From Pseudomonadota bacterium (GTDB taxonomy: Bacteria; Desulfobacterota; Desulfobulbia; Desulfobulbales; JAGXFP01), in contig JAHJAA010000079.1 in assembly GCA_018814305.1 (NCBI GenBank), forward strand, positions 10,130 to 74,129: a DNA stretch of 64,000 bases, read 5' to 3'. This document shows positions 28,954 to 56,674 of this stretch, piece by piece. A program made the translations under genes and the position numbers. The notes beneath the pieces are model-generated. The model was given only the letters and a program-made list of their open reading frames with translations, did no database searches and was not told the origin of the DNA. The number at the start of each line of letters is the position of its first letter. Positions within the stretch are counted from its first letter, which is position 1.

Positions 28954-31353
28954 TTAATACCTTTCGTTGGCTGTCCCAATCTCATCATCCTTATTGATGA
29001 GTAAGTTGATGGCATCAGCCTTCTCGTCTGCGGTGAAATCGGTTGTTTCAGCCAGGCCATTCAAGGTGGTCAGCACTGAATAATTCAGAATGCCGTCATC
29101 AAGAAAATCGATCGAATCATAGAGCAGCCGACGAACGTATTGACGGTTATGGATTACCCCACCTGGATCACCGGTCAAAAGGTTGAAGTTAAAAGCGGCT
29201 CCCAATGTATCTTCTCCCGATACCGTTACCGCTGAGCTGTTCACCTGAATTGTGGTCCAGTCACCCTTGGTGAAATAGGGGTAATTGCCCAGGTAGGGAT
29301 GCCCCGCGGTATCAAGCAGGATGGCCAGGGCCTTAATGGAGGCCTGATAACGGGCATGGTAGGTCTTGGCCGGATAGGTATCTTCGGCATCGGGGCGACC
29401 AAGCCAGGTGGGTCCGGCGTTGGTTCCTTCGCCTCGTTTATCGTGGCAAACGACGCAGACAGGGTTTAAAGCCAGATCGTTGGCGGCATAATGGGTCAAG
29501 GGGCTCAGGGTATGAGAGCCGTCCTTGCTGTCGAAATGGCAGGTGACGCAGGGGCCTTCTTCATACTCGTCATCGATTTCCGCCTCGCCGGTGGTGCCCA
29601 TGCCGAGGGTCGTATGCTCATGGGAGCCCACATTGGCATCAACCGCACTGTTGGTATAGTCACGGCCACTGAAATGATACCCTGACTCTGCGTAAAGGAT
29701 CCCGGCGGCCGCGAGGTAATGGGAGCTGACCGGATCGGCATTGGTATAATCGGTGGTCAACACGGCAATGCTCTTGCCACTTTCTCGTCCGGAGTGACAG
29801 GGGATGCAGACATTGGAACCATTGGCATCTGGATAGGTAGAGGCAGCCAGGCCTTTACCATAATCCGAGGTGAAAGCACCGGGCGCGCGGAGAGTGCCGG
29901 TATAGTCGGAATGGCAGCCCCAGCAGTAGAGCAGCTCTTTCTGTAATTTGGTGTAGGTATACCCACCTTGACCCCAATTGGCACCGGCATCCCAAGTCCT
30001 CTCCATCGTGATGGTCGGGAATTTGCCGTCGGCGTCGTAGAGTGATTTGATGGCCGCCGGATCTGCTGTGGTTGGGGCAGGGATGGCGGTGGGGTCGAAA
30101 TCGGCAGCGGCATTCCCGGCCTTGAGGTAGTCGAGGAAGGCGGCGACACCGGTGGCGGTATGACAACGAACACAGTCCGTTCGTTCATCGGTGGTCCAAG
30201 GGTATTCGACCCAGGGAGGGGCCTCTTCTTCGGTGACCCCGGCGGCGCGGACGGCAATGGCCTGTTCAAGAGTGTTATCCTCCGCCGATTTAGCCGCCTC
30301 TTCTTTCACCTCACCGAGAAATCCTCCATGGCCACTCTTGGCCCACTGCTCATGGATGGTGGTATCGGCAGTATGGACATTATGGCAATTCCGGCAGGCC
30401 CGGCGACTGGTGGGGTCGACCCCGACACCTTCAATCACATTCACTGTATCCGGATTGTCGTAATGGGTTGAGGCCATGACCCGATCCCAACGGGCGGCGT
30501 GATAAACTACGTCACCACTGGCACCGTCGTCGGTTTCTGCATAATAGTTGACCTCCGTGCCGAGTTGGGCGTCCATGGCCTGGTGGCAGGTGGTGCAGGT
30601 ATTGTATTCGGTGGAGGCGGTGGTGGTTTTGTCTCTCAGCAGCTCTTTGGGATTATGGGGATTATGGCAGGTTCGGCATTGAATGATGGCGGGTCGGCTC
30701 ACGGCTGCGGCCTCTGACTCGATCTCCTCAACGGTGTTGGCATCTCGATATCGTCTGGCTCCTTGGTCGGTATGGCATTTGGAACAGACCGGAGAACTGA
30801 TCAAAGTGGCGTAGAAATGTCTGCCTGACGAATAATCTTCGACGATATTATCGGCGACGGGTTTATAGTTATCTTGGTGGAATTGATTGTTATCCAGGTT
30901 TTTATCATGGCATTGTCCGCAGGCGGTATAATCCGGTTCCTTGGTGGGGATGTCACCTCCAAGCCAATGGTCTGAACCGGCGCCATGACAATTTTCACAG
31001 GTGACGGCTGTCATCCCTTCGGCCGGAACGTCGGCTGGATCGATGATGTTTTCAAGCAGTCTCCCGTCGCCAATGGGATCATGACATTCCAGGCAGCCAT
31101 CGGCGGCATCGGCAGCGGTGACTTCATCCCCTTGGAGCACATGGGGACTTTCGAGAAAATCAGCGACATAGTCGGCGCTCCAGTCAAATCCTTGATGACA
31201 GCCGATGCATTGATTTACGCCTGCGTATCCCTCAGGGGCTGCCGTTTCCTGACTCGAAACGGCACGATTTGAATCAAGATCGGTACCACAACCTCCCAAC
31301 GCGACCAGCATGGTTATTGCTATCCCGAGAGATGAACGCTTCATCCGTCTCAT
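28954..31353 (-). CDS. multihaem c-type cytochrome lipoprotein (13 CxxCH motifs)
   Basis: The 13 motifs are CIGCH, CLECH, CENCH, CGQCH, CSKCH, CRTCH, CTTCH, CRNCH, CVRCH, CWGCH, CIPCH, CVTCH and CVVCH. Lipobox signal is MRRMKRSSLGIAITMLVALGGC. ATG 31353 is preceded by AGGAGG (31360-31365 on the minus strand). Confidence 0.85.
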   Translation of the reverse strand: MRRMKRSSLGIAITMLVALGGCGTDLDSNRAVSSQETAAPEGYAGVNQCIGCHQGFDWSADYVADFLESPHVLQGDEVTAADAADGCLECHDPIGDGRLLENIIDPADVPAEGMTAVTCENCHGAGSDHWLGGDIPTKEPDYTACGQCHDKNLDNNQFHQDNYKPVADNIVEDYSSGRHFYATLISSPVCSKCHTDQGARRYRDANTVEEIESEAAAVSRPAIIQCRTCHNPHNPKELLRDKTTTASTEYNTCTTCHQAMDAQLGTEVNYYAETDDGASGDVVYHAARWDRVMASTHYDNPDTVNVIEGVGVDPTSRRACRNCHNVHTADTTIHEQWAKSGHGGFLGEVKEEAAKSAEDNTLEQAIAVRAAGVTEEEAPPWVEYPWTTDERTDCVRCHTATGVAAFLDYLKAGNAAADFDPTAIPAPTTADPAAIKSLYDADGKFPTITMERTWDAGANWGQGGYTYTKLQKELLYCWGCHSDYTGTLRAPGAFTSDYGKGLAASTYPDANGSNVCIPCHSGRESGKSIAVLTTDYTNADPVSSHYLAAAGILYAESGYHFSGRDYTNSAVDANVGSHEHTTLGMGTTGEAEIDDEYEEGPCVTCHFDSKDGSHTLSPLTHYAANDLALNPVCVVCHDKRGEGTNAGPTWLGRPDAEDTYPAKTYHARYQASIKALAILLDTAGHPYLGNYPYFTKGDWTTIQVNSSAVTVSGEDTLGAAFNFNLLTGDPGGVIHNRQYVRRLLYDSIDFLDDGILNYSVLTTLNGLAETTDFTADEKADAINLLINKDDEIGTANERY

Positions 31354-32015
31354 TCGCTTCCTCCTAATAGTGATAAATAGAATGCACTCTTTAAATGTAG
31401 TAAAGTTTTCAGGAAGTGTCCTTTTGAGTCTAGCAAACACCCTTCATACAGAGAAGAAAAAAACAGCTGATGGTGAATGCGTTTCCAGGGCCGTTATCCG
31501 CTGGATATATGGTGACCATTTCGGATGGGAAGGTCCTTGGCAGACTAATCCCCAATTTTCGTCATAGTGTCGAAAGTTATTTTCATATAATGAGACCCTG
31601 AGGCGGCTGTCAATACAAAATCTTGGTAAATGGTCGAGCTGCCCGGCCAAAACACCCAACTAAATCTATAAAAAGAGGGAGTTCCCCCTGGTCCGATGGA
31701 GTTGGCGAAGGGTGATCTGATCTCAGTAATAATGTATTGAAATTGATTGTTAAGTCAAGCTCAGGCAGGTCTTCAGGACATTGGGTGAGCTTTGGCAACT
31801 ATGGAATTTACGTTGAACTCTATAAAATCTCATTTAATGGAGACCTTATTTGCGCTTTTGGTAACAGTATCAATAAAATCTTGTGTTATAAAAAAAATTC
31901 TGGTTAGTATTCGATATTATTGGTGAAGATTACTTGTTTTGCGATATAAGATTTTTATCGAACGATTTTGAGTATACTTTCGGGGAAGATATCTTTTGAT
32001 GAGGAGGGTTTTGCT

Positions 32016-32492
32016 GTGAGACGAATCATTTTATTGATCACGGTGCTGTTGGCTTGGTCTGGTTTCGTTACCGGAGCTGAATTGAAGGTTATGGTTCCAA
32101 TTGATGATTTTAAACAGATGAAGTCACGTCTGGACTCACTTGAGTCGGAAAACGTCCAATTGAAACAAGAGGTCCGGACCTTAAACCGTCAGGGGGATGG
32201 GACTCAGGTTGAGTCCATGAAAGGCCGTCTTGAGTCTCTAGAACAGGAAAACAACCAACTCCGCCAACAAGCCTCTGCTGTTGAGAGTAAAGCGGTAGCC
32301 CCAGTGACTGATTCCGAGATGGGGGTGAAGATCAGCTCTTTGGAACAGGAAAACTATAACTTGAGACGGCGAGTTCTGGTGCTCAAGGATGAAGGACTTG
32401 CTGCATCCTATTCCGAAGATCGGCGGTCTGCAAAACATGTTTATTCGTCTTCAAGGGGACATGATTACACGAAGAATGTGTTTAAATTTTAA
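32016..32492 (+). CDS. secreted coiled-coil repeat protein (hypothetical)
   Basis: GTG 32016 lies 8 nt after AGGAGG and begins the signal peptide VRRIILLITVLLAWSGFVTGA. Three ~33-aa repeats carry the core L(D/E)SLE(S/Q)EN.QL(K/R)Q. A terminator follows. Confidence 0.65.
   Translation: MRRIILLITVLLAWSGFVTGAELKVMVPIDDFKQMKSRLDSLESENVQLKQEVRTLNRQGDGTQVESMKGRLESLEQENNQLRQQASAVESKAVAPVTDSEMGVKISSLEQENYNLRRRVLVLKDEGLAASYSEDRRSAKHVYSSSRGHDYTKNVFKF
32118..32390 (+). repeat. three tandem ~100-nt coding repeats (33-34 aa heptad-like units) inside the coiled-coil gene
   Basis: The three units are MKSRLDSLESENVQLKQEVRTL..., MKGRLESLEQENNQLRQQAS... and MGVKISSLEQENYNLRRRVL... Confidence 0.7.
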
Positions 32493-32540
32493 TATCGAGT
32501 CCGCCTCATTGGGGTGAGATTCTGTAACGCTTTGCTTCAA

Positions 32541-32578
32541 GGCCGGTGACTTTTCCGAAGTCCACCGGCCTTTTTTTT
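32541..32578 (+). terminator. rho-independent terminator
   Basis: Stem GGCCGGTG / CACCGGCC followed by T8. Confidence 0.7.
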
Positions 32579-32775
32579 GTGAGTACCAGGGTGGATTCAT
32601 TTAGCTCTGGGGGTATTTGAAGCGTTTTGTTGAAGATCAAGAGACCCTCCCATTTCAGCCATTAAATCGTGACCCCGGGTGGGGTGCGGAGAGGCTGGCG
32701 AGGGGATTGAATGGTGGGGGAAAAGTATCCAGGCAAACAGCTATCGACTGGATGGGGATGGGTGGTTTTTCCCAA

Positions 32776-34623
32776 TTACAATGAAGTCAGGGTCTGTTTC
32801 GCAAAAAGGTTTCCTTTTTCGGCGGACTTTTGATAGTAGCCTTTTGCCTGATCCATGTTTCTGGCGAGTCCTGACCCGGTTTCGCTAAGATACCCAAGAA
32901 AGTATAGGGCCATGGGTTGTCCGGCATCGGCGGCTTTTTCCCACCAGCGGACCGCCTTAGTAGTGTCCTGCCCAGTCCCTTTGCCGAGATAGGCCATCAG
33001 GCCGAGTCGGTACAGGGCATCGATGTTTCCGGCTTTCCCTGCTCGGTTATACCAGTCTTGAGCTGCCTTCAAATCGGGTTTGTCGCTACTCCCGGTTTCC
33101 AGGCGCATTCCCAGGATGTATTGAGCCTCGACAATGCCTTGTTTGGCTGCCTCTTCAAACCACTTGGTCGCCTCTTTTTCATTCTTGGTGATCCCCTTGC
33201 CATTACTGAGTAGCAGGGCAACTTCGTATTGGGCTTGAGCATGACCGGCCTGGGCAGCCTTGGCGTACCATGTTGCTGCCTCTTTGAATTCTCCTTGTTC
33301 CTTCAGTAGGATGGCGAGTGGGAGTTGGGCTTTGTCTATTCCTTGCAGAGCGGCGAGGCGAAACCATTTTATGGCCTCGGATGATGATCTTTTTACGCCG
33401 ATGCCTTGCGAATAATAACTACCGGCAAGGAATCGAGCTTCGCCGTGACCCTGTTTGGCTGCATTCAAGTACCATTTCAGGGCCAGCCCTGGATCTTGTT
33501 TTCGGCCCTTGCCTGAATCATATTGTTGGGCAAGGTTGAATTGGGCGGCTACATCGCCTGATTCGGCGGATTGGACAATGAGGCTGTCCACCGCTGGTTG
33601 ATATCCCTGTCTGGCCGACTGATTCAAAAGGGCCAGGGCTTTAGAGGTGCTTTTTTCGATCCCGTCACCTGTACTATACAGGGTAGCCAAGGCGAATTGT
33701 CCTTCGGCGTTACCGAGGTCGGCGGCCTGTTGGAACCATTTTGCCGCCTCAGAACTTGATTTTTTTACTCCGTCCCCTGAAAGGTGCATTGTTCCCATGA
33801 GAAAGCAGGCTTCCGGGTCGTTCGTGCCGAGGGCCGTGGAAAATTCGTATTGAGCTTCAACATGGCCTTGGCGGGCCGCTTTAAAGATCCAGATGATGGC
33901 CTCATTGGAATTCTTTTCTACCCCTGTCCCGGATTCGAAATTTTTACCCAACTTATATTGGGCATTGGCATCACCCGTTTCTGCTAACTTAAGGAGTTTT
34001 TGGTTTGAGGTGTCGAGGCCTGTTTTCCTGTTGATTGGTTCCTCAGCTTTTGCTGTAGAGGTTGTGACTGAAATGGAAAATTTATCAGCAAGAATTTTTG
34101 CGGCTTGTGGTTGACCCTGTTCCGCTGCCATCCTTAACAATCGGATCGCTTCTGTCTTGTCTGCCGGGATTTCGGCGCTGTCCTCTGTGTAGAGTTTTCC
34201 CAGAAGATAGAGTGCTTCGGTGTGGCCTTGTTCAACTGCGAGTTTGAGCCACTTAAGGGCCTCAGGGAGGTTTTTTTCTGAACCGTTCTCGGTGAGGTAC
34301 ATCTTTCCCATCAGAACAAAGGCTTCTGGATTGCCGTTTTCTAATGCGGAACCGAATTTGATCTGGGCATCAATTTGGCCTTGTTTCGCGGCCTTCTGAT
34401 ACCATTTGAGCGATTCGGCAGGATCTTTGTTCACTCCATTGCCGTTTTCGTAAAGATGGCCCAGTTCGTACTGGGCTTGAGGGTCCCCTTGCTCTGCTGC
34501 TTTGGTGAGATTTTGCAGGTCTGCAGCCCAGATGGATGTGCTAAAAAAACAGGACAAAACAAGACAAAGTAAGAACTCAGCGAGGGCGGTTGATGTTTCT
34601 CGGGAGGTGTTTTTTTTGTTCAT
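32776..34623 (-). CDS. Sel1-like repeat (SLR/TPR-like) protein with signal peptide
   Basis: 615 aa with more than 12 repeats of the pattern AQY.LG..Y..G.GV.K....A.KW..KAA.QG. Hydrophobic N-terminal signal. Confidence 0.85.
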   Translation of the reverse strand: MNKKNTSRETSTALAEFLLCLVLSCFFSTSIWAADLQNLTKAAEQGDPQAQYELGHLYENGNGVNKDPAESLKWYQKAAKQGQIDAQIKFGSALENGNPEAFVLMGKMYLTENGSEKNLPEALKWLKLAVEQGHTEALYLLGKLYTEDSAEIPADKTEAIRLLRMAAEQGQPQAAKILADKFSISVTTSTAKAEEPINRKTGLDTSNQKLLKLAETGDANAQYKLGKNFESGTGVEKNSNEAIIWIFKAARQGHVEAQYEFSTALGTNDPEACFLMGTMHLSGDGVKKSSSEAAKWFQQAADLGNAEGQFALATLYSTGDGIEKSTSKALALLNQSARQGYQPAVDSLIVQSAESGDVAAQFNLAQQYDSGKGRKQDPGLALKWYLNAAKQGHGEARFLAGSYYSQGIGVKRSSSEAIKWFRLAALQGIDKAQLPLAILLKEQGEFKEAATWYAKAAQAGHAQAQYEVALLLSNGKGITKNEKEATKWFEEAAKQGIVEAQYILGMRLETGSSDKPDLKAAQDWYNRAGKAGNIDALYRLGLMAYLGKGTGQDTTKAVRWWEKAADAGQPMALYFLGYLSETGSGLARNMDQAKGYYQKSAEKGNLFAKQTLTSL

Positions 34624-34920
34624 AGTGTTATTCTCTGAAGTTGGTCATGTGAAATGATTAAAAAATCAATTTTCCAATTATAGCATAAATATGTATAATT
34701 GTAGCAATTTGTTCTTTTATCTATTAATAAGTTATAACAAAATTTATTTGCTCGATTGAGAAACTTTCATTAATCTGTTTGGTGCAGTGGGCAGGTGCAC
34801 TCCTGACCGGAGTTCTCCCTTGGCAACACCGGGGATGGGAAAGGACGGCCGTGGGCATTGGATTTTTTTAAATTACAGAGTGATATGGTATCGGATTAAA
34901 TCTGGGGAAGGAGAAATGGA

Positions 34921-35937
34921 ATGAGTCGAGACAAATACCTTGTGAAATTGGCCCTGTTCAGCAGTTTGCTGGCCGCCACTTTCATGGTCGGTTGCGTTAA
35001 GCCGTTGAGTAAATTGAAGGAACCGCGTCCCATTATTCCCATCCAAGAGTACGAAAAACAACTGTTGGGGAAATTGACATCTGATTATGTCGGAAACGAG
35101 AATTGCCTGAAGGGCTGTCATACCCATGACAAAATTGCCCTGGATTTCAAATCCAGTACAATGGGGGATCTCCTTGAACAAACATCATCGGGGATGCAGA
35201 TCGTAGACTGTGAGTCCTGTCACGGACCTGCCAGCGAGATGATGGATGCCATGGTCGGTCTCAAGGAAGAGGTTAATAAAAAAGAGATTATTGCCGCCCA
35301 TAAGGAAAACCTTCTTGATTATGCAGAATTACCATCCGGTGCCAAGTCTTTGGTGTGTTTGAAATGCCATACGGCTAATGCAACATTCAACATTCATAAT
35401 TGGAATGCGAGTTCTCATGCCGCAAATGAGGTGACCTGCTACAACTGCCATCCGATTCATGCCAGTGCCGATTTGATCACCGAACCTCGGGCCGTTGAGC
35501 AATTATGTCTTGGTTGCCATCTCGATGTCAGCGCCCAATTTTCATTACCCAGTCGACACCCGGTGAAGGAAGGGAAAATTTATTGTATTGACTGTCACGA
35601 TCCTCATGGTACCTCGACGGCCAAAGATCTTCGGGAAATGACCACCAAGGAATCCTGTGGCCGCTGTCATACCGAGAAGGTAGGTCCTTTTCTTTACGAG
35701 CATGGTGATATTACCGAAGAGTGCACCACCTGCCATGCCGCACATGGGTCAGCCAACAATAACCTTCTGAAATATCCGGTTACTTTCCTCTGTAAACAAT
35801 GTCATCCCCAACATCGGATGAGTTCGGATGATTTTGGCGAAAAGAGCCAAACATTTACCCGATGTACGGACTGTCACTCCATGGTCCACGGTTCGGATGT
35901 TCCAGGTGTGAGTTCAAATGGGGGGTTAACACGATGA
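34921..35937 (+). CDS. decahaem c-type cytochrome, DmsE/MtrA/PioA-like (9 CxxCH + 1 CxxxCH), with lipobox
   Basis: Haem motifs are CLKGCH, CESCH, CLKCH, CYNCH, CLGCH, CIDCH, CGRCH, CTTCH, CKQCH and CTDCH. The signatures GPFLYEHG...CTTCHAAHGS and CTDCHSMVHGSD are typical of the family. N-terminal signal is ...LLAATFMVGC. RBS GGAAGGA lies upstream. Confidence 0.85.
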   Translation: MSRDKYLVKLALFSSLLAATFMVGCVKPLSKLKEPRPIIPIQEYEKQLLGKLTSDYVGNENCLKGCHTHDKIALDFKSSTMGDLLEQTSSGMQIVDCESCHGPASEMMDAMVGLKEEVNKKEIIAAHKENLLDYAELPSGAKSLVCLKCHTANATFNIHNWNASSHAANEVTCYNCHPIHASADLITEPRAVEQLCLGCHLDVSAQFSLPSRHPVKEGKIYCIDCHDPHGTSTAKDLREMTTKESCGRCHTEKVGPFLYEHGDITEECTTCHAAHGSANNNLLKYPVTFLCKQCHPQHRMSSDDFGEKSQTFTRCTDCHSMVHGSDVPGVSSNGGLTR

Positions 35938-37985
35938 AATTGAGACTTTTCCTGCTTTCAGCTGCGGTCTTCCTCTACCCTCTTGGGGCAACGGTTTGTT
36001 TTGCCGACTACCAGGATTTGACGGAACAGGTCTCCACGGAGGCCAGTGTCTGGATTGGCGGGTATGGGGTGAACTCAGACGCCACCAACACCTCCAGTCG
36101 AGCCGAGAATGATGTGTTACCCGAGGCTTCAGGGCGTGCGGCTTCACCCAAGGCCGGGGAGTATTATTCTCCTGACAGTTCTCCCAGCGGCGGGTTTTTC
36201 TTTGCGACCACCCCTCTGCCCAATCGGTATCATTTTGAATTCGATTACTACAACCAGGATGAATGGTATGGTGACTTTCGCTATGCCTTCAAGGATATTC
36301 TCCAGATCCGGTTGCTGCCTCGACGATTCTATCATCAACTTGATAATTTAACTGTTTTTGATTTTGCCCCAACGTCTTCAAGCACAGCGGAAGTGGATAA
36401 TCGCAATCCCGGTGCTGAATATGGTTTGCAGTTCGATCTTGACCTTTTACGGATGCGCTTGAAGACTCCGAATTATCCATTCCATGTATACGGTGAGGCG
36501 GAACTGGTTAAACGGACTGGGACCCAGCAGCTTCGATTTTTAGGAGGTTCAGGCAATTTTTATGGCGGAACTCAAGGGGGAAGGGTCCGGGTGACTGAAT
36601 CGCGCTCCATCGACCAGGAGAACAAGGTTTTTACCATTGGAACCAGTACCCACATTGGCCTCATCGAGGTCGATCTCTCTCATAAGAATCGTAATTTCGA
36701 GAATTCAGTAGCCGATCCGACCTATGCTTATCAGACCGATTTTATCGGCGGGACAACGGCTTCGGTTCATAATGTAATCCCCAATCTGAAGGCCACCACC
36801 AACACGGTGAAAATTCATACGGCCCACTCGGGAAAAGTTTTTGCCTCTGCCACGTATTCCATGATCGACAAAACCAATGAAACCAGCGGGGCCAAGGCGG
36901 AAAACACCATGGGATACGGGGAGGTATTCTGGCTTCCCGCCCCCTACTTGTCCTTCGCTGTTAAGTATCGTCATCAGGAAAATGAGGCATCAGCCCCGTC
37001 CACGGTCAGTGGATATGATCAGACTGGTGTCCTGAAGGATTATGCCGTCAATCCCGGAGTGATTTCCAAGACCGATAAGTCATCGTTGCATGTGCGATAT
37101 TCTTTGATCCCCAAAACCAATGTAAGTCTTAACTATTTCAAAGAGATTAAAGAGGTGGAGAATCTTTCGGCTATTATCTGGAGCCGGCCGACCAAGACCA
37201 ATAAGGACGACTATGAAATTTCTCTCACCAACTGGGCTATTCCACGGGTAAGGGTTACTGCCAAGGTTCGTCATACCGATGTGAACCAGGAGTTAGTATT
37301 TGCCGAGGCGGTGAATAATCTGCCCGATCAGACCGATGAAGGTCGCCTGGATTTGACCTGGCTGATTACTCCTAAAATTACGTCGTTTTTGAGTGCTGAT
37401 GTGGTCCGAGAGAATACTGATAACAATCTTGTTTCGGACGGTATTACCGAGGCCAATCAGGGCAAGTCGCTCCGTCAAATGTATCTGGCCAGTGTCTCCT
37501 TTATGGTGAATAGAAAACTGTCGCTAACTCCAACATATACGTTCTTATCATATAAGCAGGACCGTTTCATGGCTTGGGAAGATCATGGAAATACTGCAGT
37601 GATTGACCAAGGTTATAAAAACGAACAGACTGCCCATAATTTTTCAATCAACATGCTATATGCTCCGGTGAAACGTCTGGATATAAACACCACGTTCGAA
37701 TACACGGTAACCGACGGGACTGATGAGCCATCCTGGTTCCTGACCATGACTGATGGGTCTACGGATGGGGTGAATGTCAACATGACTGAGGTTGCTCGCT
37801 TTTCCGAGGCCACTACCACCGAAATGGTTTTGCGGCTGGATACTGCTCTTGATCTCGGGCGTGGTTGGGGACTTGGGCTCAATCTTCGTTATACTGATTG
37901 GAGTAACGATTCTTATGATAATCCCTCCGACGGGACTTTCGTCGGAGGTTTGGTGAAGATCACTAAATCGTTTATTCATAAATGA
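35934..37985 (+). CDS. outer-membrane beta-barrel protein, MtrB/PioB-like porin partner of the decahaem cytochrome
   Basis: 684 aa from ATG 35934, which forms an ATGA overlap with the cytochrome stop. Signal peptide MKLRLFLLSAAVFLYPLGATVCFA. Gly/Tyr/Thr/Asn-rich alternating-strand composition and a size matching MtrB/PioB. The call rests on context and composition, not a search. Confidence 0.7.
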   Translation: MKLRLFLLSAAVFLYPLGATVCFADYQDLTEQVSTEASVWIGGYGVNSDATNTSSRAENDVLPEASGRAASPKAGEYYSPDSSPSGGFFFATTPLPNRYHFEFDYYNQDEWYGDFRYAFKDILQIRLLPRRFYHQLDNLTVFDFAPTSSSTAEVDNRNPGAEYGLQFDLDLLRMRLKTPNYPFHVYGEAELVKRTGTQQLRFLGGSGNFYGGTQGGRVRVTESRSIDQENKVFTIGTSTHIGLIEVDLSHKNRNFENSVADPTYAYQTDFIGGTTASVHNVIPNLKATTNTVKIHTAHSGKVFASATYSMIDKTNETSGAKAENTMGYGEVFWLPAPYLSFAVKYRHQENEASAPSTVSGYDQTGVLKDYAVNPGVISKTDKSSLHVRYSLIPKTNVSLNYFKEIKEVENLSAIIWSRPTKTNKDDYEISLTNWAIPRVRVTAKVRHTDVNQELVFAEAVNNLPDQTDEGRLDLTWLITPKITSFLSADVVRENTDNNLVSDGITEANQGKSLRQMYLASVSFMVNRKLSLTPTYTFLSYKQDRFMAWEDHGNTAVIDQGYKNEQTAHNFSINMLYAPVKRLDINTTFEYTVTDGTDEPSWFLTMTDGSTDGVNVNMTEVARFSEATTTEMVLRLDTALDLGRGWGLGLNLRYTDWSNDSYDNPSDGTFVGGLVKITKSFIHK

Positions 37986-38908
37986 ACTTCACCAGAGCCA
38001 AGGCTATGAAATATAGAATCCTTGTTGCCTTTTTGATTTTTTACGGACTTTTTCCGCAATCGTCATTGGCAGAAATCGTCGGGGCCTTGATGCCTCCCAA
38101 GGTCCCATATTATATGTTGATTCAGGACTCACTTGAGAAAGAACTCAAGTCCTTATCCTTTGGGGATCGGGTCATCCTGCAGCGACCTGCTCCCAATGAA
38201 ATGGCCTGGAAAAATGCCACCAGAAAATTGGTCACTCTCGGGGCCAGGGTTATTGTGGCTTACGGCTCAGAGACCGCAATCGCGATCCGGAGTGAGAATT
38301 CCCAGGTGCCGGTGGTCTTTTGTGGCGCGTACGACCCGGTAGAATGCGGGGTTTCTGGTAATGTTACTGGAATGGATGCCACCCTTCCGCTTCAGGGGCT
38401 CGTCGATAATTTGAAGAAAATTTCAAATTTCAATAGTCTTGGGGTCATGTATTCAGCGAATGAGATTGAGTCGGTTCGTCAACTTGAAGCGGTGGAAGGA
38501 TTGGTTGCGAAAAAGGGGGGGAGCGTTAAAAGAATCGATATGTCAGACTCTGATTCGTATGACCTGTCTGGTATCGAGGCCTTATTGATAACTTCCGCGG
38601 CAAAAATAAACTCCCAGGAGTATATTGAAAAGATAGTTTCCAGTGCCCGTTCTGGAAAAGTAGCCACGGCCTCGGTGTTCAGTGGAACCTGTGAACTTGG
38701 AGTTCTCATTTCCATGGCCGCAGATCCGGATATACAGGGGAAGGGGGCGGCTAAAATGGTTGTTCAAATAATGAAAGGAACAAATCCCGCTGATATCCCA
38801 GCGGATACCAAGCCGAAGATGGAAATGACCATAAATTTAAAGGAAGCAAAAAATCTTGGAATGAGCATTCCCTTTGAACTTTTAGGAACCGCAAAAATGG
38901 TTCGTTAA
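37982..38908 (+). CDS. periplasmic PF04392-type (ABC_sub_bind) substrate-binding-fold protein; no cognate ABC permease/ATPase nearby
   Basis: 308 aa with a signal peptide. IVAYGSETAIA...VPVVFCGAYDPV..GNVTG..., ...ISMAADPDIQGKGAAKMVVQIMKGTNPADIP... and ...MTINLKEAKNLGMSIP all follow the family consensus closely. ATGA overlap with the porin stop. Confidence 0.8.
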   Translation: MNFTRAKAMKYRILVAFLIFYGLFPQSSLAEIVGALMPPKVPYYMLIQDSLEKELKSLSFGDRVILQRPAPNEMAWKNATRKLVTLGARVIVAYGSETAIAIRSENSQVPVVFCGAYDPVECGVSGNVTGMDATLPLQGLVDNLKKISNFNSLGVMYSANEIESVRQLEAVEGLVAKKGGSVKRIDMSDSDSYDLSGIEALLITSAAKINSQEYIEKIVSSARSGKVATASVFSGTCELGVLISMAADPDIQGKGAAKMVVQIMKGTNPADIPADTKPKMEMTINLKEAKNLGMSIPFELLGTAKMVR

Positions 38909-38964
38909 TATATGTGTTTTTACTCCAATGATCTTGCTTGAGATTTGGGGGATGTGAATAAAGG

Positions 38965-39001
38965 AACCGGGACCTCTTCTTTAAGAGGCCCCGGTTTTTT
39001 T
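38965..39001. terminator. bidirectional rho-independent terminator between convergent genes
   Basis: Stem ACCGGGACCTCTT / AAGAGGCCCCGGT with one mismatch, followed by a T-run. Confidence 0.6.
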
Positions 39002-39374
39002 ATTCGCTATAGGCATTAAAGGAGTTATCTGGTGGTGGGCGGATGGATGATTTTGGTTGAGTATCTCTGACCAGATAGGCAATTGAATGACCGCGATCAA
39101 CTTGGTAAAAACCAAATTGTTGATAAAACTTGATGAGCCTTTGTAACCGCTCCTCACTTACATTGCCGATAGGCCTCGCTGAGACATGTACTTTTTTGGC
39201 AAGCCCATCGGCAAGGGTGAGTATGTGCCTGATCATTTGAGATCCGACACCTTTACTTCGATGAGCGGCAGGGACCATTACCGTATCAATGGAAAAGGCT
39301 TCTTTGCTTTCAGAGAATTTAATTTGGGCATAATCATCACCAAGATACCATTTGATTTCACCAACGATATTCAT
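39000..39374 (-). CDS. GNAT-family N-acetyltransferase
   Basis: 124 aa. ...VMVPAAHRSKGVGSQMIRHIL... is the acetyl-CoA-binding Q/RxxGxG-type motif, followed by FYQQFGF. Confidence 0.75.
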   Translation of the reverse strand: MNIVGEIKWYLGDDYAQIKFSESKEAFSIDTVMVPAAHRSKGVGSQMIRHILTLADGLAKKVHVSARPIGNVSEERLQRLIKFYQQFGFYQVDRGHSIAYLVRDTQPKSSIRPPPDNSFNAYSE

Positions 39375-39717
39375 TTTTCAAAACCATTTTGGCTTTATCT
39401 GAGCAAGGATGGCAAAAACATGAAAGTCCCAGGGGGGAGGCCCCTGGCATGCTGGAGACGTTGGGGGTATTACTGGAAGGATGATCTGATCCAGTTGTCC
39501 GGGGTTTAGGTGATTTATTAGCCAAGGGGTGATGAACATTGCCAGTATAGTATCTGTGTTTGATTTTGTTGGGTTTTGATTATTTTTTTGGAAGAGTTTA
39601 GACTGCGGGAAAAGTCCAGGGCAGCATGAGAATCAAATTATTTTCTAACTCGAGAATCCATGCGTGGGAACGAACAAAGAGGAGGGGCCAAAAAGCCCCC
39701 TCCTCTTTGTCGATTGA

Positions 39718-40143
39718 TCAGGTCAATGAAGCCATAATCTGTGGAATGAGCTTTTCAAGTTCAAGTTTGGCTAAAGCCTGATTTCCCATGGAAGAAAGGA
39801 TGGCGATCAAATGGAAATGAATCGGTGCATTTACCCCGGAACATCTCATGATGATAATCCCCTTTGGCGTTTTAATCGATAGTTCCAGGCAGGATTCCAG
39901 GCCGATTTTTTCAGATGCTTCATGGGCCGTCCTGAAAATATTATTGAAAGTGGTCCCGACCCTGTAAAGGTCAATGTTGGGGTCATTTGATTCTCCGGCA
40001 AGGATTTCTCCCGAATGGGTCATTATGCCAGCGGCCTTAAAACCATTCGTTTTGCCAAGTTGAGATAGATAACTCTCAAGAATCTCTTCTTCCTCTTCAA
40101 TGTGCTCGTAGGTATCTTTCTTCTCCGCCCTTTTCTTTCCCAT
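39718..40143 (-). CDS. Roadblock/LC7 (MglB-like) domain protein
   Basis: 141 aa. The pattern NGFKAAGIMTHSGEIL...GIIIMRCSG...HLIAILSSMGNQALAKLELEKL fits the Roadblock/LC7 alpha-beta-alpha layout. It is about 60% identical by eye to the C-terminus of the next gene. Confidence 0.55.
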   Translation of the reverse strand: MGKKRAEKKDTYEHIEEEEEILESYLSQLGKTNGFKAAGIMTHSGEILAGESNDPNIDLYRVGTTFNNIFRTAHEASEKIGLESCLELSIKTPKGIIIMRCSGVNAPIHFHLIAILSSMGNQALAKLELEKLIPQIMASLT

Positions 40144-40167
40144 TATCCTGTGCCTCCTGGCAAAAAG

Positions 40168-40962
40168 TTATGCCAGTTCCTCCATGACCGCCGGGATCAA
40201 TTTTTCCATTTCCATCTTGGCCAGGGCTTGATTCCCGTCGGCTGCCATGATCATGATCATATGATAATGGACCTTTGCCTTGACCCCTGAACAGCGCATG
40301 ATAATGATTCCCAGAGGTGTTTTAATGACTGCTTCCTGACAGGCTTCGAGGCCGATTTTTTCAGAGGCTTCGTGGGCTGAACGGAAAATGTCGTTAAAGG
40401 TGGCGCCGACCATGTCAAGTTGGATGTTGGCATCAACCGTATCCATGACGAGAATTTCACCCGTGAAGTTCATAATTGCCGCTGCCTTGAAGCCGTTTAC
40501 TTTTTTAAGTCTTGCCAAATGATCTTCTAAAGCCATGGTGCGTACCTCCTGATTGATAGTTGTCGTTGATAGTGAGGAATCGTCCGGTGCTAGAAGGGAT
40601 GATTCTTCCCCCTTTGAATGAGTTATGTCGGATGTTGAATCTGTCACAGGGAGATTCTGGTCTCCAAATTGGGTGGAATCGGGCAAATCCTTTTGGGTTT
40701 CGCTTGATGGTTCCGCTTCCGCTAAAACAGAGTTCGCTTGGATGCGTTCTGACTCTGACGGGAGAATTGATGACAGGGGTTTATTGACTCTTTTCTTGAT
40801 TTTTTGTTTTGGAGGGGGGCGGAAGCTGAGGGAGATTGGCTCCCATTGGATCAACTCCAATATGGCTTCTTCGCCTTTGGCCTGATTGCATAAGGCATCA
40901 ACAAGGTTGCCCTCTATAAAAAGACACAGGCATTTTTGATTAGCTTCACCCTCTGCTTCCAA
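40168..40962 (-). CDS. C-terminal portion of an interrupted gene: second half of a DUF4388/PATAN domain - Ser/Pro-rich linker - Roadblock/LC7 domain
   Basis: The tracked ORF begins at TTG immediately after an in-frame TAA. LCLFIEGNLVDALCNQAKGEEAILELIQWEPISLSF matches the second half of DUF4388. The C-terminus is a paralogue of gene 39718-40143. Confidence 0.6.
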   Translation of the reverse strand: MEAEGEANQKCLCLFIEGNLVDALCNQAKGEEAILELIQWEPISLSFRPPPKQKIKKRVNKPLSSILPSESERIQANSVLAEAEPSSETQKDLPDSTQFGDQNLPVTDSTSDITHSKGEESSLLAPDDSSLSTTTINQEVRTMALEDHLARLKKVNGFKAAAIMNFTGEILVMDTVDANIQLDMVGATFNDIFRSAHEASEKIGLEACQEAVIKTPLGIIIMRCSGVKAKVHYHMIMIMAADGNQALAKMEMEKLIPAVMEELA

Positions 40963-41520
40963 TTAAGTTGTTTGCCCCTCCTGCTCAATGAGAAGGAGGA
41001 GTTCCGCAAATGATAATGGGGAACTAGCTGGTTGAGGGTGGTCAAGAAATTCGGAATGCATTGCTTGGTGGATTTTTTCAGATTCCTGATGTCGAGATAG
41101 AACCGTTACGTTTTTCCCGTTATAGGAAGTATCGTGGGATCCAAGCATAAAGATCTCAAGGTGGGGGTGTTCCCGGGGGATCTGGTGTAACAGATGGAAA
41201 CCACCCATATTCGGCAGGCTGAGATCAATGAGTATTCGGGCAATTTTCGTATTCCCTGCAAGAATCGGCAAGGCTTGTTCTGCCGACTCGCAATAAATTG
41301 AATTCTTTTCGAAGGAAGAATCGCTTTTGGGGAGGAGAAGGTCTTTTGCCGTTGATACAATAAGGATTGATTTCTCCAAAGATTGAAAGTCGGTCCGGGG
41401 GGGACCGCTTTTGGGGGCACGCGGATCCACTCGGTTGAAGGATGGGAATGAATCATTCTCTGAGTGATCCACCAGACTGTTTAACAGGGTATGCAGGTTT
41501 TCTTCAGATTGTAAATCCAT
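40963..41520 (-). CDS. N-terminal portion of the same interrupted gene: degenerate receiver (REC-like) domain plus the first strand of a DUF4388/PATAN domain
   Basis: 185 aa. The REC-like core is ILIVSTAKDLL...ARILIDLSLPNMGGFHLLHQI...EIFMLG; the acidic pocket is degenerate. It ends LSFAELLLLIEQEGQTT-TAA, which is the opening of DUF4388. Confidence 0.6.
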   Translation of the reverse strand: MDLQSEENLHTLLNSLVDHSENDSFPSFNRVDPRAPKSGPPRTDFQSLEKSILIVSTAKDLLLPKSDSSFEKNSIYCESAEQALPILAGNTKIARILIDLSLPNMGGFHLLHQIPREHPHLEIFMLGSHDTSYNGKNVTVLSRHQESEKIHQAMHSEFLDHPQPASSPLSFAELLLLIEQEGQTT

Positions 41521-42063: not shown

Positions 42064-42183
42064 TTCTCATGATCCCCTCTGCACTTTTTTATTTTAATGG
42101 ATAGGTTGGTTTTGGTCTTTTGAATGAAACGAAAAGTCGACAGGTGAATTTTTTTATTGCAAGCGGGCTTTTTTTTCTCTATG

Positions 42184-42218
42184 GTGGTTGGAAGTGGAGT
42201 GAATGGGTCTCGTGTTGG
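42184..42218 (+). promoter_or_regulatory. candidate MraZ operator: four TGG-core direct repeats with roughly helical spacing
   Basis: The stretch reads GTGGT tggaa GTGGA gtgaa TGGGT ctcgtg TTGGA. TGG cores start at 42185, 42195, 42204 and 42216, which is 35-70 nt upstream of the mraZ GTG. It resembles the E. coli TGGGN-N5 repeat operator. Confidence 0.3.
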
Positions 42219-42252
42219 ATCGTATTCCCATAAAGGTGGCAGGAGATATCTG

Positions 42253-42720
42253 GTGGATGGATGTATTTTTATAGGGACCCACAGCGGGGTGTTGGACGAA
42301 AAGTCTCGTCTGGTTATGCCTGCCGGGTTTCGGAAAGATAATTCCGACGATATCCTCAGTGGTGATTTTTATATTACTCCCCATCGGACTGGGTTTGTTC
42401 AGGTCCGCCCGGCCATGGTCTGGGAGCGTTACAAACAGTCAATTCAATCAGCAGAAGAGTTTGACGGCACCCAAAAGAGAAAATTTATCCGGCTTTTGAG
42501 CAATAATACGGCGAAGGGAAAACTCGATAGCCAGTATCGTATTGTCCTGACCCAGGGACTGCGACGGAAGATACACTTCGTATCCGATGACCCACGGCAG
42601 AAAGTTTTTATTGTGGGATGTGGCGATTCCTTTGAAATATGGCCTGAACATCTCTATCGCGGAGAAGAAGATTCGACGGGAGAGATGTCAGGATTTATTG
42701 ATACATTCGAAGGGCGCTAA
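42253..42720 (+). CDS. mraZ: MraZ-family transcriptional regulator (two SpoVT/AbrB-like half-domains)
   Basis: GTG 42253 lies 6 nt after AGGAGA (42241-42246). FIGTHSGVLDEKSRLVMPAGFR is the first half-domain, and GKLDSQYRIVLTQGLRRKIHF...KVFIVGCGDSFEIWPEH is the second. 155 aa is a typical size. Confidence 0.8.
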   Translation: MDGCIFIGTHSGVLDEKSRLVMPAGFRKDNSDDILSGDFYITPHRTGFVQVRPAMVWERYKQSIQSAEEFDGTQKRKFIRLLSNNTAKGKLDSQYRIVLTQGLRRKIHFVSDDPRQKVFIVGCGDSFEIWPEHLYRGEEDSTGEMSGFIDTFEGR

Positions 42721-42877
42721 TGATGATAACGAAGGGGATCTCTTGGCAAAGGTCGGCAATGAACTGTTGCCGGAGCCAGGAAGATGGGTGGCGGTATTCA
42801 GCGGACTTTAAATATGAACTTCTCAAGCTTGAATTTAATTCTATAATTCCACTATTCCTCTATGGGGACTGGTCGCC

Positions 42878-44143
42878 ATGTTAACCCGACATTGGATAAT
42901 TTCTTCACTTGATATTGGCTCCAGCACAACGAATGCGATAATTCTCGAGGTTGATCGGCAGGATAATTTTGTGTTGGTTGGTCATGGTCAGTGCCAAACC
43001 CAAGGTCTTGTTCATGACATGGTCCAGGATATTGGGGCATTGAGTCGAGTTATCGGTGAGAGTGTCTCCCAAGCCGAGGAGATGGCTGGGGTCAGTGCTT
43101 CGGGAGTGAATATAAGCATCGGTGGTGAACATGTTCGGGTCTTAAATTGCCGGGGTGGGATTCCTTTACCGAAGGCGAGGACCAAACATCGGCAGCACAT
43201 TGTCGATAATCGGGATATCAAAAAGGCCATAGAAAATGCGGGGTCCGTTCCTGTCCCTCCTGGTTTAAGGGTCCTGCACGTTCTGCCGCTTAACTTTTTG
43301 ATTGATGGAAGGAAAGTTGAAAGTCCTTTGGGATTGAACGGAGTCCGGTTGGATGTGGATGTCATGATTATCGGGGCAAAGCAATCGGTATTGAACGCTA
43401 TCGCCCAGGCAGCGGAACAAGCCGATGTTCGAGTGCGAAATTTTTGTTACCGACCGTTGGCTACCTCGCGAGCCGTTCTCACTCCTGATGAGCGACTTGA
43501 GGGGGCTTGTGTGATCGATATCGGTGGCGGTCATACAGATGTCGCCATCTTCCAAAACGGGGTGATGCGTCATGCTTCAACCCTGACGCTCGGTTCTGAC
43601 AGTATTACTTCTGATACTGTCGCCATGTTGGAGATTCCGGGCGGTGAGGCTGAAAAAATAAAACGCGAGTATGGGCATTGCTGCGCATCATTGGTTGATG
43701 AGCATGAGTTTCAGGTGTCCGGACATGGCAAGAATGGATGTTTGTGGCGAACTTTTCGACGATCTGAATTGGTTGATTCAATCATCCAACCCCGGGCGGA
43801 AGAAATTCTTGAAGAGGCTTTGGCCGTTATCAATGGCTTCGAAGAGAATGGAATCCTCCCCACTTCAGCTGTGTTAACGGGGGGAGGAGCGATGTTGAAT
43901 GGGATACAGAATTTGGCCGCTACTATTTTTCCCTTCCCGATAAAAAAATCAGCTGGTTTATCAATAGGAATGGAAGCCGGGGAGGCAATGATCTGGCCCG
44001 ATACTTCGGCTTGTTTCGCCACTGCCATGGGTTTGGCCTTGCTGGATATGGAGCAAAGGCGAATGCAACGTCAAGAGTTAAAAGACCATGTGGTTGGGCG
44101 TCTGTATCAAAAAGTCATTCGCGGTCTGCATGAAATCATGTAG
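42878..44143 (+). CDS. ftsA: cell division protein FtsA (actin-like ATPase)
   Basis: 421 aa. SSLDIGSSTTNAIILEV, VIDIGGGHTDVAIF, LTGGGAML and a C-terminal amphipathic tail. Confidence 0.85.
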   Translation: MLTRHWIISSLDIGSSTTNAIILEVDRQDNFVLVGHGQCQTQGLVHDMVQDIGALSRVIGESVSQAEEMAGVSASGVNISIGGEHVRVLNCRGGIPLPKARTKHRQHIVDNRDIKKAIENAGSVPVPPGLRVLHVLPLNFLIDGRKVESPLGLNGVRLDVDVMIIGAKQSVLNAIAQAAEQADVRVRNFCYRPLATSRAVLTPDERLEGACVIDIGGGHTDVAIFQNGVMRHASTLTLGSDSITSDTVAMLEIPGGEAEKIKREYGHCCASLVDEHEFQVSGHGKNGCLWRTFRRSELVDSIIQPRAEEILEEALAVINGFEENGILPTSAVLTGGGAMLNGIQNLAATIFPFPIKKSAGLSIGMEAGEAMIWPDTSACFATAMGLALLDMEQRRMQRQELKDHVVGRLYQKVIRGLHEIM

Positions 44144-44167
44144 GAAAATGTGAAAGGGAGGTGCCAT

Positions 44168-45532
44168 ATGGATCGAATGGATGATGGGTATACCTTTTCA
44201 ATGGGTAACGATGAGACAAAGGTTAAAATTGTTGCTCTTGGAATTGGTGGTATGGGGAACAACGCCATGGAAAATCTGGCTGTATCCGATCTAAAGGGCT
44301 TGGAGCTTTATTCGGTTAATACCGATTATCAAGCTCTCCAGCGGTGTGTCGGATCAAGACCAATTCAAATTGGCGCCAAACGGACCAATGGTAAGGGCTC
44401 AGGCGGAAACCATGAGGTCGGGAGGCTTTCGGCTGAAGATGATTTGGATGTCCTTGCCGGTTTAATCACCGGAGCAGAGGTGGTTTTTATCGCCGCCGGC
44501 ATGGGTGGCGGGACCGGGACCGGGGCTGCGCCGGTTGTTGCTCGGCTTTGCCGTGATATGGGGATCCTGAGTGTCGGAGTGGTGACGACCCCGATTCATT
44601 GCGAAGGTCGAAAACGGACTGATAAAGCGGTAAAGGGGCTGGATGAGATGAGGCGTCACGTTGATTCCCTTGTGGTCATCGAGAATGAAAGACTTTCCCT
44701 GCTTATGGATCAGGAAGATGTTTCCATCGTTGAAGTTTTGCGAAGAGCCGATCAGGTGTTGTTAAGTGGGGTGAAGGGTATTTTAGGTACAATCAATTCC
44801 CATGGCTATATCAATCTCGATCTGGCCGACCTGAAGAATGTCCTCCAGCGGCGAGCAGAGGGAAGGTGCAATGATGCCATGATCGGAATTGGAGAAGCTC
44901 ATGGTAATGATCGGGCGGTTCGTGCGGCCACCGAAGCCCTCAAAAATCAAATCATGACCCGCGCCTCAATCCAAGGCGCTCATTCGCTGCTTGTTAATGT
45001 CGCGGGGGATGAAAACATGGGGCATCGGGAGGCATTACTGGCGGTTGAAACCATAGCGCGTCAGTTCGGTAACCAAGATCGTGAGCTCTTTATGGGGGTT
45101 GTAACCGATGCAAAAATGGGAAATAAAATAAGCGTTACCGTCATTGCCACTGGAATAGGGATGCGTTCCAATGACCAGGGGATCTGTGGGGTTGCCCAAA
45201 TGAGTCGGGATCAGTTGATTTCGAAAGCAGGACTCGGGACAGACGCGTATCATCCTGATCGAAGAATGACAAACGGAGTGAATGATGTTGTTTTGTCTGA
45301 AATCCCAAGGAAAGAGATTGAGGATGGTTTTGGTATTTCTCCATTGGTGGCCGTCAAAGAGTGGTGCATTCCTGCATTTCAGAGAAAAAAATCAAAATAT
45401 CGAAATGTTGAAGTTTCAGTTCTTCCCCTTAAATCAACAACCAAGAGTTTTCCCCGGGGAAGACAGCGGGATAGCCGTAAAACTTTGGGTTTTGCCGGGT
45501 TTTTCTTTCCGGTTGCGTCATCAACAATGTGA
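44168..45532 (+). CDS. ftsZ: cell division GTPase FtsZ (divergent; extended C-terminal tail)
   Basis: GIGGMGNNA, tubulin signature GGGTGTGAAPV, T7 loop NLDLADL, and C-terminal peptide IPAFQRKK followed by 46 more residues. ATG 44168 lies after GGGAGG. Confidence 0.9.
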   Translation: MDRMDDGYTFSMGNDETKVKIVALGIGGMGNNAMENLAVSDLKGLELYSVNTDYQALQRCVGSRPIQIGAKRTNGKGSGGNHEVGRLSAEDDLDVLAGLITGAEVVFIAAGMGGGTGTGAAPVVARLCRDMGILSVGVVTTPIHCEGRKRTDKAVKGLDEMRRHVDSLVVIENERLSLLMDQEDVSIVEVLRRADQVLLSGVKGILGTINSHGYINLDLADLKNVLQRRAEGRCNDAMIGIGEAHGNDRAVRAATEALKNQIMTRASIQGAHSLLVNVAGDENMGHREALLAVETIARQFGNQDRELFMGVVTDAKMGNKISVTVIATGIGMRSNDQGICGVAQMSRDQLISKAGLGTDAYHPDRRMTNGVNDVVLSEIPRKEIEDGFGISPLVAVKEWCIPAFQRKKSKYRNVEVSVLPLKSTTKSFPRGRQRDSRKTLGFAGFFFPVASSTM

Positions 45533-56102: not shown

Positions 56103-56115
56103 GAGCGGGGCATCC

Positions 56116-56652: not shown

Positions 56653-56674
56653 ATGTAGAAGGAGAGCAACCATT

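Follow-up and report, generated by a model that had tools for sequence, protein, structure and literature searches.

In a 64-kilobase (kb) stretch of contig JAHJAA010000079.1, drawn from a 2016 biofilm metagenome assembly and referred to here as the window, three co-directional genes (34921-38908, + strand) encode a multihaem cytochrome, an outer-membrane barrel and a periplasmic protein of family PF04392. Profile matches and structural models identify the first two as a porin-cytochrome pair of the MtrAB type, probably served by an MtrC-like partner, and conserved gene order marks the third as a dedicated, transporter-independent companion of this family of conduits. Taken as one statement, that the locus is an MtrCAB-type conduit with a dedicated periplasmic sensing adaptor is an evenly balanced proposition. 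Of the ways in which electrons cross the outer membrane, the Mtr, Mto and Pio conduits are understood best, and they serve as metagenome markers for iron, manganese and electrode metabolism. A decahaem gene followed by a gene for a barrel of about 700 amino acids is the architecture common to MtrAB, PioAB and MtoAB, and an earlier note on this DNA had read the window genes as such a conduit; that reading has held, with the cytochrome passing the family model TIGR03508 and the barrel fold lying closest to that of MtrB.

The cytochrome (338 amino acids; 34921-35937, +) is, by its sequence, a true member of the MtrA/DmsE family. It reaches 237.3 bits against TIGR03508, the DmsE/MtrA decahaem model (cut-off 192.2), over model positions 1-257 of 258, which answers the profile check proposed earlier for this protein, and its residues 57-329 align with MtrA from the solved Mtr complex (6r2q_A) at an expectation value (E) of 1.5e-39. 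Nine CxxCH motifs (residues 97, 146, 173, 196, 222, 246, 268, 291 and 315) and one CX3CH site (CLKGCH at residue 62) are co-linear with the ten sites of MtrA, CLKGCH standing opposite its first haem motif, CLMCH. Chance can be set aside as the source of these motifs, given that 20,000 shuffles of the cytochrome residues never produced more than 2 CxxCH. All ten had been listed in the earlier note together with GPFLYEHG, CTTCHAAHGS and CTDCHSMVHGSD, and all are in place.

Two oddities described there, a lipobox (FMVGC) and the CX3CH site, are real and turn out to be family-wide rather than local. Among 78 orthologues from two phyla, the lipobox cysteine (Cys25 in the window protein) is kept in every sequence with a recovered N-terminus, and CL..CH in every sequence with an intact first haem region. 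A further common trait of the orthologues is a conserved N-terminal linker, about 35 residues long, that precedes haem 1 (PIIPIxEYEKMLxG..DYVG). DmsE/MtrA cytochromes are soluble and processed by signal peptidase I; here there is a lipobox instead, from which lipidation is predicted, and the protein is best described as a distinct, predicted lipid-anchored branch of the MtrA family. A dimethyl sulfoxide-reductase-type DmsEF unit was also considered and rejected, with no DmsAB-type reductase among the scanned window open reading frames (ORFs) or the families recurring in the loci of relatives. As an aside for annotators, chain A of PDB entry 6r2q (MtrA) is wrongly named "Cystathionine beta-synthase" in the PDB sequence copy, and automated annotation could be led astray by the error.

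The second gene (35934-37985, +) encodes a protein of 683 amino acids, one fewer than first reported, with the signal peptide that had been noted (ending ...CFA/DY). Its AlphaFold2 (AF2) model (predicted local distance difference test, pLDDT, 81) contains 26 long strands, and this supplies the strand-number prediction that had been suggested, about 26. Foldseek against the PDB places MtrB (6r2q_B) at the top (E 3.5e-20, template modelling (TM) score 0.66/0.69), the next matches being 22-strand TonB receptors at TM <=0.39. MtrB is a 26-strand barrel housing MtrA (PMC12133095). As expected of the MtrB family, the barrel gene lies beside the decahaem gene, here with a four-nucleotide stop/start overlap. 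Sequence comparison was less generous: the only NCBIfam match (E <=0.01) is a weak one to the GSU2204 family, and a profile of 39 barrel homologues run against PDB sequences found weak TonB-receptor segments only, and not MtrB. The MtrB_PioB model PF11854 is nevertheless matched by 7 of the 39 homologues, with a best E of 1.7e-13. Because sequence models gave no MtrB/PioB match for the window protein, homology with MtrB is argued from fold and from these transitive matches, and on modelled fold, context and transitive homology the protein is accepted as an MtrB-like barrel although it fails sequence-model membership. Of the MtrB/PioB likeness proposed earlier, then, the large-barrel half stands and the sequence-model half does not. 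The single cysteine of the barrel is inside the signal peptide, so the CXXC of Shewanella MtrB is missing.

At the nucleotide level the operon is compact. An AAGGAG Shine-Dalgarno sequence lies 7-8 nucleotides 5' of the cytochrome start, and the cytochrome TGA overlaps the barrel ATG within ACGATGAAAT (ATGA at 35934-35937), as had been described. A second overlap of this kind, claimed between the barrel and PF04392 genes, fared less well. The ATGA at 37982-37985 exists and opens a 308-amino-acid frame; the public gene call, however, starts at ATG 38006 (38006-38908, +; 300 amino acids, MKYRIL...), 20 nucleotides past the barrel stop, and the signal peptides of all PF04392 orthologues have the length expected from that start. 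Since both lines favour ATG 38006, the overlap is possible but less likely; the gap between the two genes is <=20 nucleotides with either start, and it is the second translational coupling that is doubtful, not the operon structure. The terminator said to close the unit is there as a G+C-rich hairpin at 38965-38996 (14 pairs, 8 of them G-C), followed on the + strand by a T-run, TTTTTATT; it lies between the convergent PF04392 (+) and GNAT (-) genes and would serve as a bidirectional intrinsic terminator. An Rfam scan of 31400-39400 returned no match. The statement that no ABC (ATP-binding cassette) permease or ATPase lies nearby is borne out for the whole window, in which a six-frame scan for Walker-A plus LSGGQ motifs found no ABC ATPase and Pfam scans of 41 ORFs (the large ones and the conduit neighbours) found housekeeping families only where ABC parts were sought.

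A surface partner for the pair is likely to be encoded 3.5 kb upstream of the operon on the opposite strand (28954-31353, -). This protein carries 13 CxxCH motifs and a lipobox (LVALGGC), and it matches PF22113, covering similarity to MtrC/MtrF domains II/IV, at 61.4 bits (cut-off 30), with no match seen to the full MtrC model. Homologues lie directly 3' of the PF04392 gene in seven relatives (L001-L005, L065 and L161 in the locus numbering used here) and directly 5' of the cytochrome gene in many Nitrospirota loci; such placement, with the domain match, makes it the likely extracellular component of the conduit. Both this likely 13-haem MtrC-like partner and the chemoreceptor coupling found in most relatives go beyond what the earlier note had offered.

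The tie between the PF04392 gene and the cytochrome-porin pair, for which that note had set a synteny test in related genomes, proved strong across two phyla. When one genome was scanned for each species, 79 loci came back, about 14 of Desulfobacterota type and about 65 from Nitrospirota/Thermodesulfovibrionales, including Ca. Sulfobium and Ca. Manganitrophus; the former contain 11 close relatives that make up the window clade, 10 of them complete enough for downstream comparison. The barrel gene is present in all 79 loci, the cytochrome gene stands directly 5' of it in 78 (the contig of the remaining locus, L047, begins inside the barrel gene), and the PF04392 gene stands directly 3' of it in 63 of the 68 loci with enough DNA, in Desulfobacterota and Nitrospirota alike. 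Reciprocal look-ups starting from divergent binding-protein homologues (31-33% identity) led to the same trio; these were exact-protein look-ups, of which the one for P0126 landed on the edge of a contig and was uninformative. A search of metagenome contigs with patterns from the binding-protein alignment (A4) brought back nothing but generic PF04392 genes from soil (24-31% identity), because the patterns fell in a family-wide C-terminal motif. An ABC ATPase motif occurs within 8 kb in just 3 of the 79 loci and is adjacent in none. Because the subfamily occurs essentially only behind this type of barrel and without an ABC importer, its members appear to be dedicated conduit partners rather than transport receptors.

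Losses are as instructive as retention. In a neighbour-joining cytochrome tree rooted with MtrA, the window clade is sister to all other loci, from which it follows that the trio predates the split. Five loci keep the cytochrome-barrel pair without a PF04392 gene: L026, L028, L040 and L077, which form a nested subclade, and L022. These same five are without a methyl-accepting chemotaxis protein (MCP), kinase or Che genes, the binding protein having been lost together with the transducer, and since the conduit was kept after that loss, the binding protein is not an obligatory structural part. By eye, the genes downstream in the four subclade members encode a GTPase-like ORF of about 490 amino acids, a radical-SAM-like protein (CxxxCxxC) and a HemE-like protein.

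The PF04392 assignment itself, made from the sequence alone in the earlier note, is confirmed by model and fold. The protein scores 85.7 bits against PF04392 (cut-off 25.9) and 79.5 against the TrpX equivalog (cut-off 390), and its AF2 model (pLDDT 93.5) superposes on 3lft, 3lkv and 6hni with a Foldseek TM of 0.85. The subfamily to which it belongs is sharply bounded, with E values falling to 1e-39 (31% identity) before a jump to 1e-14 for generic PF04392 proteins. In all subfamily orthologues there is a signal peptide of the signal-peptidase-I type, with VG.(L/I)M...(P)YY immediately after it. Subfamily-specific conserved residues (M29, Y35, Y36, Q59, P61, P63, Y86, G87, E97, Y109 and Q244) lie nearly all in loops that line the cleft; these are strongly kept within the subfamily and unlike those of generic PF04392 proteins and of relatives that bind Trp, Phe or Tyr. 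In CD0873, VC_1101 and SP1069, two positions set the preference for Tyr, Phe or Trp (PMC6816091). At these the subfamily has Phe/Leu for Ala/Glu and Pro for Tyr/Gln, and the first cleft loop has changed from QxVxHPxLD to MPxxxPYY. A cleft so conserved and yet retuned speaks for a ligand or partner that is specific and different. Two cysteines, Cys114 and Cys229 (numbered in the 300-amino-acid form), occur in every window-clade protein (11 of 11), and in the MCP-linked branch cysteine is in the majority at neither position. They lie in cleft loops of opposite lobes, where a disulfide, a redox switch or a metal site would be possible. None of the three operon proteins has a curated NCBIfam or Pfam model specific to it.

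The role suggested for this protein comes from the sister branch, in which 48 loci have downstream DNA for a census of transducers. The next gene encodes an MCP of about 690 amino acids (Cache-like periplasmic domain, HAMP, MCP signalling domain) in 36 of them, 31 with a four-nucleotide stop/start overlap. A PhnD-like binding protein comes next in six, followed in at least four by a HAMP histidine kinase; single loci have a histidine kinase, an NtrC-type regulator and then a kinase, or an MtrC-like cytochrome and then an MCP; the last three have some other gene or none. Overall, an MCP or kinase lies <=4.5 kb from the binding-protein gene in 44 of the 48, and CheA, an AAA_22 ATPase and CheW are upstream in about 22. 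In many Nitrospirota (for example, L041:902-12774) the order runs receiver/NtrC-like gene, CheA, AAA_22 ATPase, CheW, MtrC-like cytochrome, decahaem, barrel, PF04392, MCP, MCP and sometimes CheW; the same chemosensory cluster recurs in L042, L045, L048-L053, L055, L059, L061, L064, L067-L069, L071, L073, L076 and L079. At the other extreme, L164 is a compact module of cytochrome, barrel, binding protein and MCP, with no outer cytochrome and with housekeeping genes on its flanks. A second orphan PhnD-type protein (PF12974) after the PF04392 gene was observed in L015, L025, L029, L032, L035 and L054, with a four-nucleotide overlap in four of the six, and a HAMP histidine kinase follows that gene in L015, L025, L035 and L054. 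Of the three roles imagined earlier for the window protein, as a docking, sensing or substrate-presenting subunit, the chemoreceptor coupling of its relatives favours sensing.

A working scheme can be envisioned from these parts. The lipid-anchored decahaem MtrA homologue would thread the 26-strand MtrB-like barrel, and the conduit would move electrons between periplasm and cell surface in mineral reduction or oxidation, probably with the 13-haem MtrC/MtrF-type lipoprotein as its surface partner. The third gene product, predicted to be a secreted, soluble class-I periplasmic binding protein, may bind, in its strongly conserved and remodelled cleft, either a specific small ligand or some feature of the conduit, and report that state to membrane signal transducers in the manner of LuxP, TorT or maltose-binding protein. 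In the sister branch the partner would be the Cache-HAMP chemoreceptor to whose gene the binding-protein gene appears translationally coupled inside a CheA/CheW cluster; in the window branch the protein may signal to a receptor encoded elsewhere or have kept a conduit-side role only. Such a sensing adaptor is favoured because the protein is translationally coupled to chemoreceptors in most of the family and is lost with them, and because the conduit outlasts that loss. A fuller form of the proposal, which we offer tentatively, is that the PF04392 protein wires an Mtr-type conduit to chemoreceptors by sensing the product or state of the conduit (Fe(II)/Mn(II) that it has released, say, or a shuttle, or how reduced the haems are at the periplasmic end) and, through an Esn-like CheA-ATPase-CheW relay, steers the cell in its taxis or biofilm decisions, whether it is to approach solid electron acceptors or donors or to leave them. 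The window clade would then hold a derived form with a cysteine pair in the cleft, acting on the conduit itself or by way of a distant receptor.

Several observations weigh against this proposal. No MCP, kinase, CheA or CheW is found near the operon, either in the window or in the 10 comparable loci of its clade, and because the transducer is missing there, the case for sensing is carried over from the sister branch. The root of the tree falls between the two branches and so fits either gain of a transducer in the sister branch or its loss in that of the window. Of the 62 positions best conserved among the MCP-linked binding proteins, 26 are different in those of the window clade, a divergence from which it follows that the function of the latter may have shifted. 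As for the conduit, the window barrel has no match in Pfam even at E 10, and so none to PF11854 (MtrB/PioB); its tie to MtrB is by modelled fold and transitive homology only. No RNA runs were found to contain the window sequence, only DNA runs of one biofilm metagenome; the listed RNA runs for a Ca. Manganitrophus relative (L074) contain none of its sequence words.

Some of these same observations lend substance to the main rival, a rather doubtful alternative in which the binding protein serves the conduit structurally or as a docking subunit. It would sit where the barrel opens into the periplasm or on the lipid-anchored N-terminal end of the cytochrome, recruiting periplasmic electron carriers or stabilising or assembling the complex, with the chemoreceptor link a later add-on. 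The trio is ancestral to both branches in the MtrA-rooted tree, and in the window clade the protein is kept under purifying selection with no transducer nearby (identity 39-61%, against 45-52% for the barrel) and has 26 invariant positions of its own, Cys114 and Cys229 included; the conserved N-terminal linker of the cytochrome could provide a docking site. Against this stand the five loci that keep the pair without the protein, and the fold carries no redox cofactor motif. The literature search found no class-I binding protein as a porin-cytochrome subunit, and we know of no precedent for one.

It is improbable, meanwhile, that cytochrome, barrel and binding protein together make up a sensor instead of a respiratory conduit, the decahaem wire coming to equilibrium with redox-active solids outside the cell and having its state read by the binding protein for taxis or regulation. 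Four-gene modules with no outer cytochrome do exist (L164), many loci are embedded in CheA-ATPase-CheW clusters, and Geobacter CheA/ATPase/CheW proteins are needed for electrode colonisation (PMC5585712), all of which would suit such a device. The window, on the other hand, has an MtrC-like 13-haem lipoprotein and no chemosensory gene, so a respiratory conduit fits better, and a binding-fold protein that reads the redox state of haem has no known mechanism. Finally, an ordinary amino-acid ABC-importer receptor of the TrpX/CD0873 kind, with permease and ATPase encoded elsewhere and its position here accidental, can call on the clear PF04392 match and fold and on solved relatives that bind Trp, Phe or Tyr, but is rejected as highly improbable given a position kept in 63 of 68 species from two phyla with agreeing reciprocal look-ups, a TrpX score of 79.5 against a cut-off of 390, replacement of both specificity positions and the first cleft loop, and the absence of ABC genes adjoining any family member.

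Other neighbours of the operon are conserved within the window clade. A secreted coiled-coil protein of about 158-174 amino acids (32016-32492, +), with coiled-coil-type matches only in Pfam, has homologues beside the cluster in nine of the clade's 10 loci, while L003 is on too short a contig to show one. Homologues of a secreted 615-amino-acid Sel1-repeat protein (32776-34623, -; 12 repeats, Sel1 E 5.9e-104) flank the cluster in L001-L010 and L038.

Further afield, three regions of the window deserve mention in their own right. At 39718-41520 (-) and 42157-45532 (+), two paralogues of 141 and 264 amino acids adjoin a 185-amino-acid receiver-domain protein with a partial Response_reg match at cut-off level; the shorter has a weak, sub-threshold match to Roadblock/LC7 and the longer no Pfam match. 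Paralogues and receiver protein are divergent from an mraZ-like gene, after which ftsA and ftsZ come directly, without the usual mraW-mur-ftsQ genes between. At 55182-57274 (-), a transporter-less PhnD-like protein of family PF12974 (306 amino acids) lies beside a TPR protein and a short ORF whose match to the OpuAC binding domain is confined to the C-terminal end of that domain. Two tandem, overlapping paralogues of the adenylosuccinate-lyase family (492 and 459 amino acids) occupy 58354-61205 (-).

The 79 species loci represent a widespread and uncharacterised branch of Mtr-type conduits in sulfur-cycling Desulfobacterota and Nitrospirota, with a predicted lipid-anchored cytochrome, a near-constant binding protein that has no transporter and, in most lineages, chemoreceptor coupling inside a che cluster. 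Standard Pfam and NCBIfam models miss its type of barrel, and surveys built on them therefore probably miss the branch as well. The system bears on how cells sense solid electron acceptors or donors, and it offers a testable handle in the form of one small soluble protein and one receptor domain. PF04392 would, if the proposal is true, be extended from amino-acid import to signalling.

Comparison with described systems helps to place each of these features. Among binding proteins, the literature describes PF04392 members only as amino-acid transport receptors. The window protein resembles TrpX/SP1069 (3LFT), VC_1101 (3LKV) and CD0873 (6HNI) in its fold (TM 0.85), in profile E values of 1.8e-63 to 1.1e-52 and in its DP and NVTG loops; it differs in being just 20-25% identical, in having no ABC partner, in the replacement of the cleft residues that select aromatic ligands and in the added cysteine pair of the window clade. 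Closer in arrangement are LuxP-LuxQ, TorT-TorS and maltose-binding protein-Tar, in which, as in the relatives of the window, a binding protein without a transporter is coupled to a transducer with a Cache/PAS-like periplasmic domain; 3o1i, of TorT-TorS, is among the structural neighbours of the window model. Unlike these, the window protein belongs to PF04392, is encoded in an electron-conduit operon and has its transducer missing from the window.

Geobacter provides several partial parallels. GSU2222 (CheA, esnC), GSU2221 (ATPase) and GSU2220 (CheW, esnB) carry consecutive locus numbers and are needed for electrode colonisation (PMC5585712), and the CheA-ATPase-CheW trio of the relatives resembles them in order, a likeness from annotation and gene order that we treat as a lead only. 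EsnA, by comparison, has no periplasmic domain and no binding-protein link (PMC5585712). The window regions 28954-31440 (-) and 34921-37985 (+) show weak NCBIfam links to the Geobacter GSU2203 decahaem, the GSU2204 CXXCH (seleno)protein and the UshA-like PCGU (seleno)protein, the cytochrome scoring 211 bits against GSU2203 and the barrel 65 bits against GSU2204, both under the cut-offs of 325 and 350; Geobacter may therefore possess a related system of cytochrome and barrel that includes selenoproteins. The periplasmic Pcc cytochromes of OmaB-OmbB-OmcB and ExtABCD are octahaems of another family. In Manganitrophus, the porin-cytochrome (PCC) clusters treated in PMC9040806 are dodecahaem systems for which no binding protein is mentioned. 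More broadly, the literature consulted on Mtr in Desulfobacterota, Desulfurivibrio iron respiration, Manganitrophus PCCs, binding-protein ligands and Geobacter transposon sequencing (Tn-Seq) describes no binding protein or chemoreceptor in Mtr-type clusters.

With MtrCAB (6R2Q), MtoAB, PioAB and DmsEF, the window locus has in common a DmsE/MtrA decahaem beside a barrel of about 26 strands and 650-700 amino acids, and with MtrCAB also a multihaem lipoprotein with MtrC/MtrF-domain similarity, here as a candidate surface partner. Like MtoB and PioB, neither of which is known to carry it, its barrel is without the N-terminal CXXC that is a feature of Shewanella MtrB, and it has diverged from MtrB too far for PF11854. 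The cytochrome departs from that of MtrCAB in its predicted lipidation, its CX3CH first haem site and its conserved N-terminal linker, while the candidate surface cytochrome, with 13 haems, has its gene away from the operon and on the opposite strand. To our knowledge no PF04392 gene occurs in the described Mtr, Mto, Pio or Dms clusters, and as the near-constant third member of the operon this gene sets the window family apart from all four.

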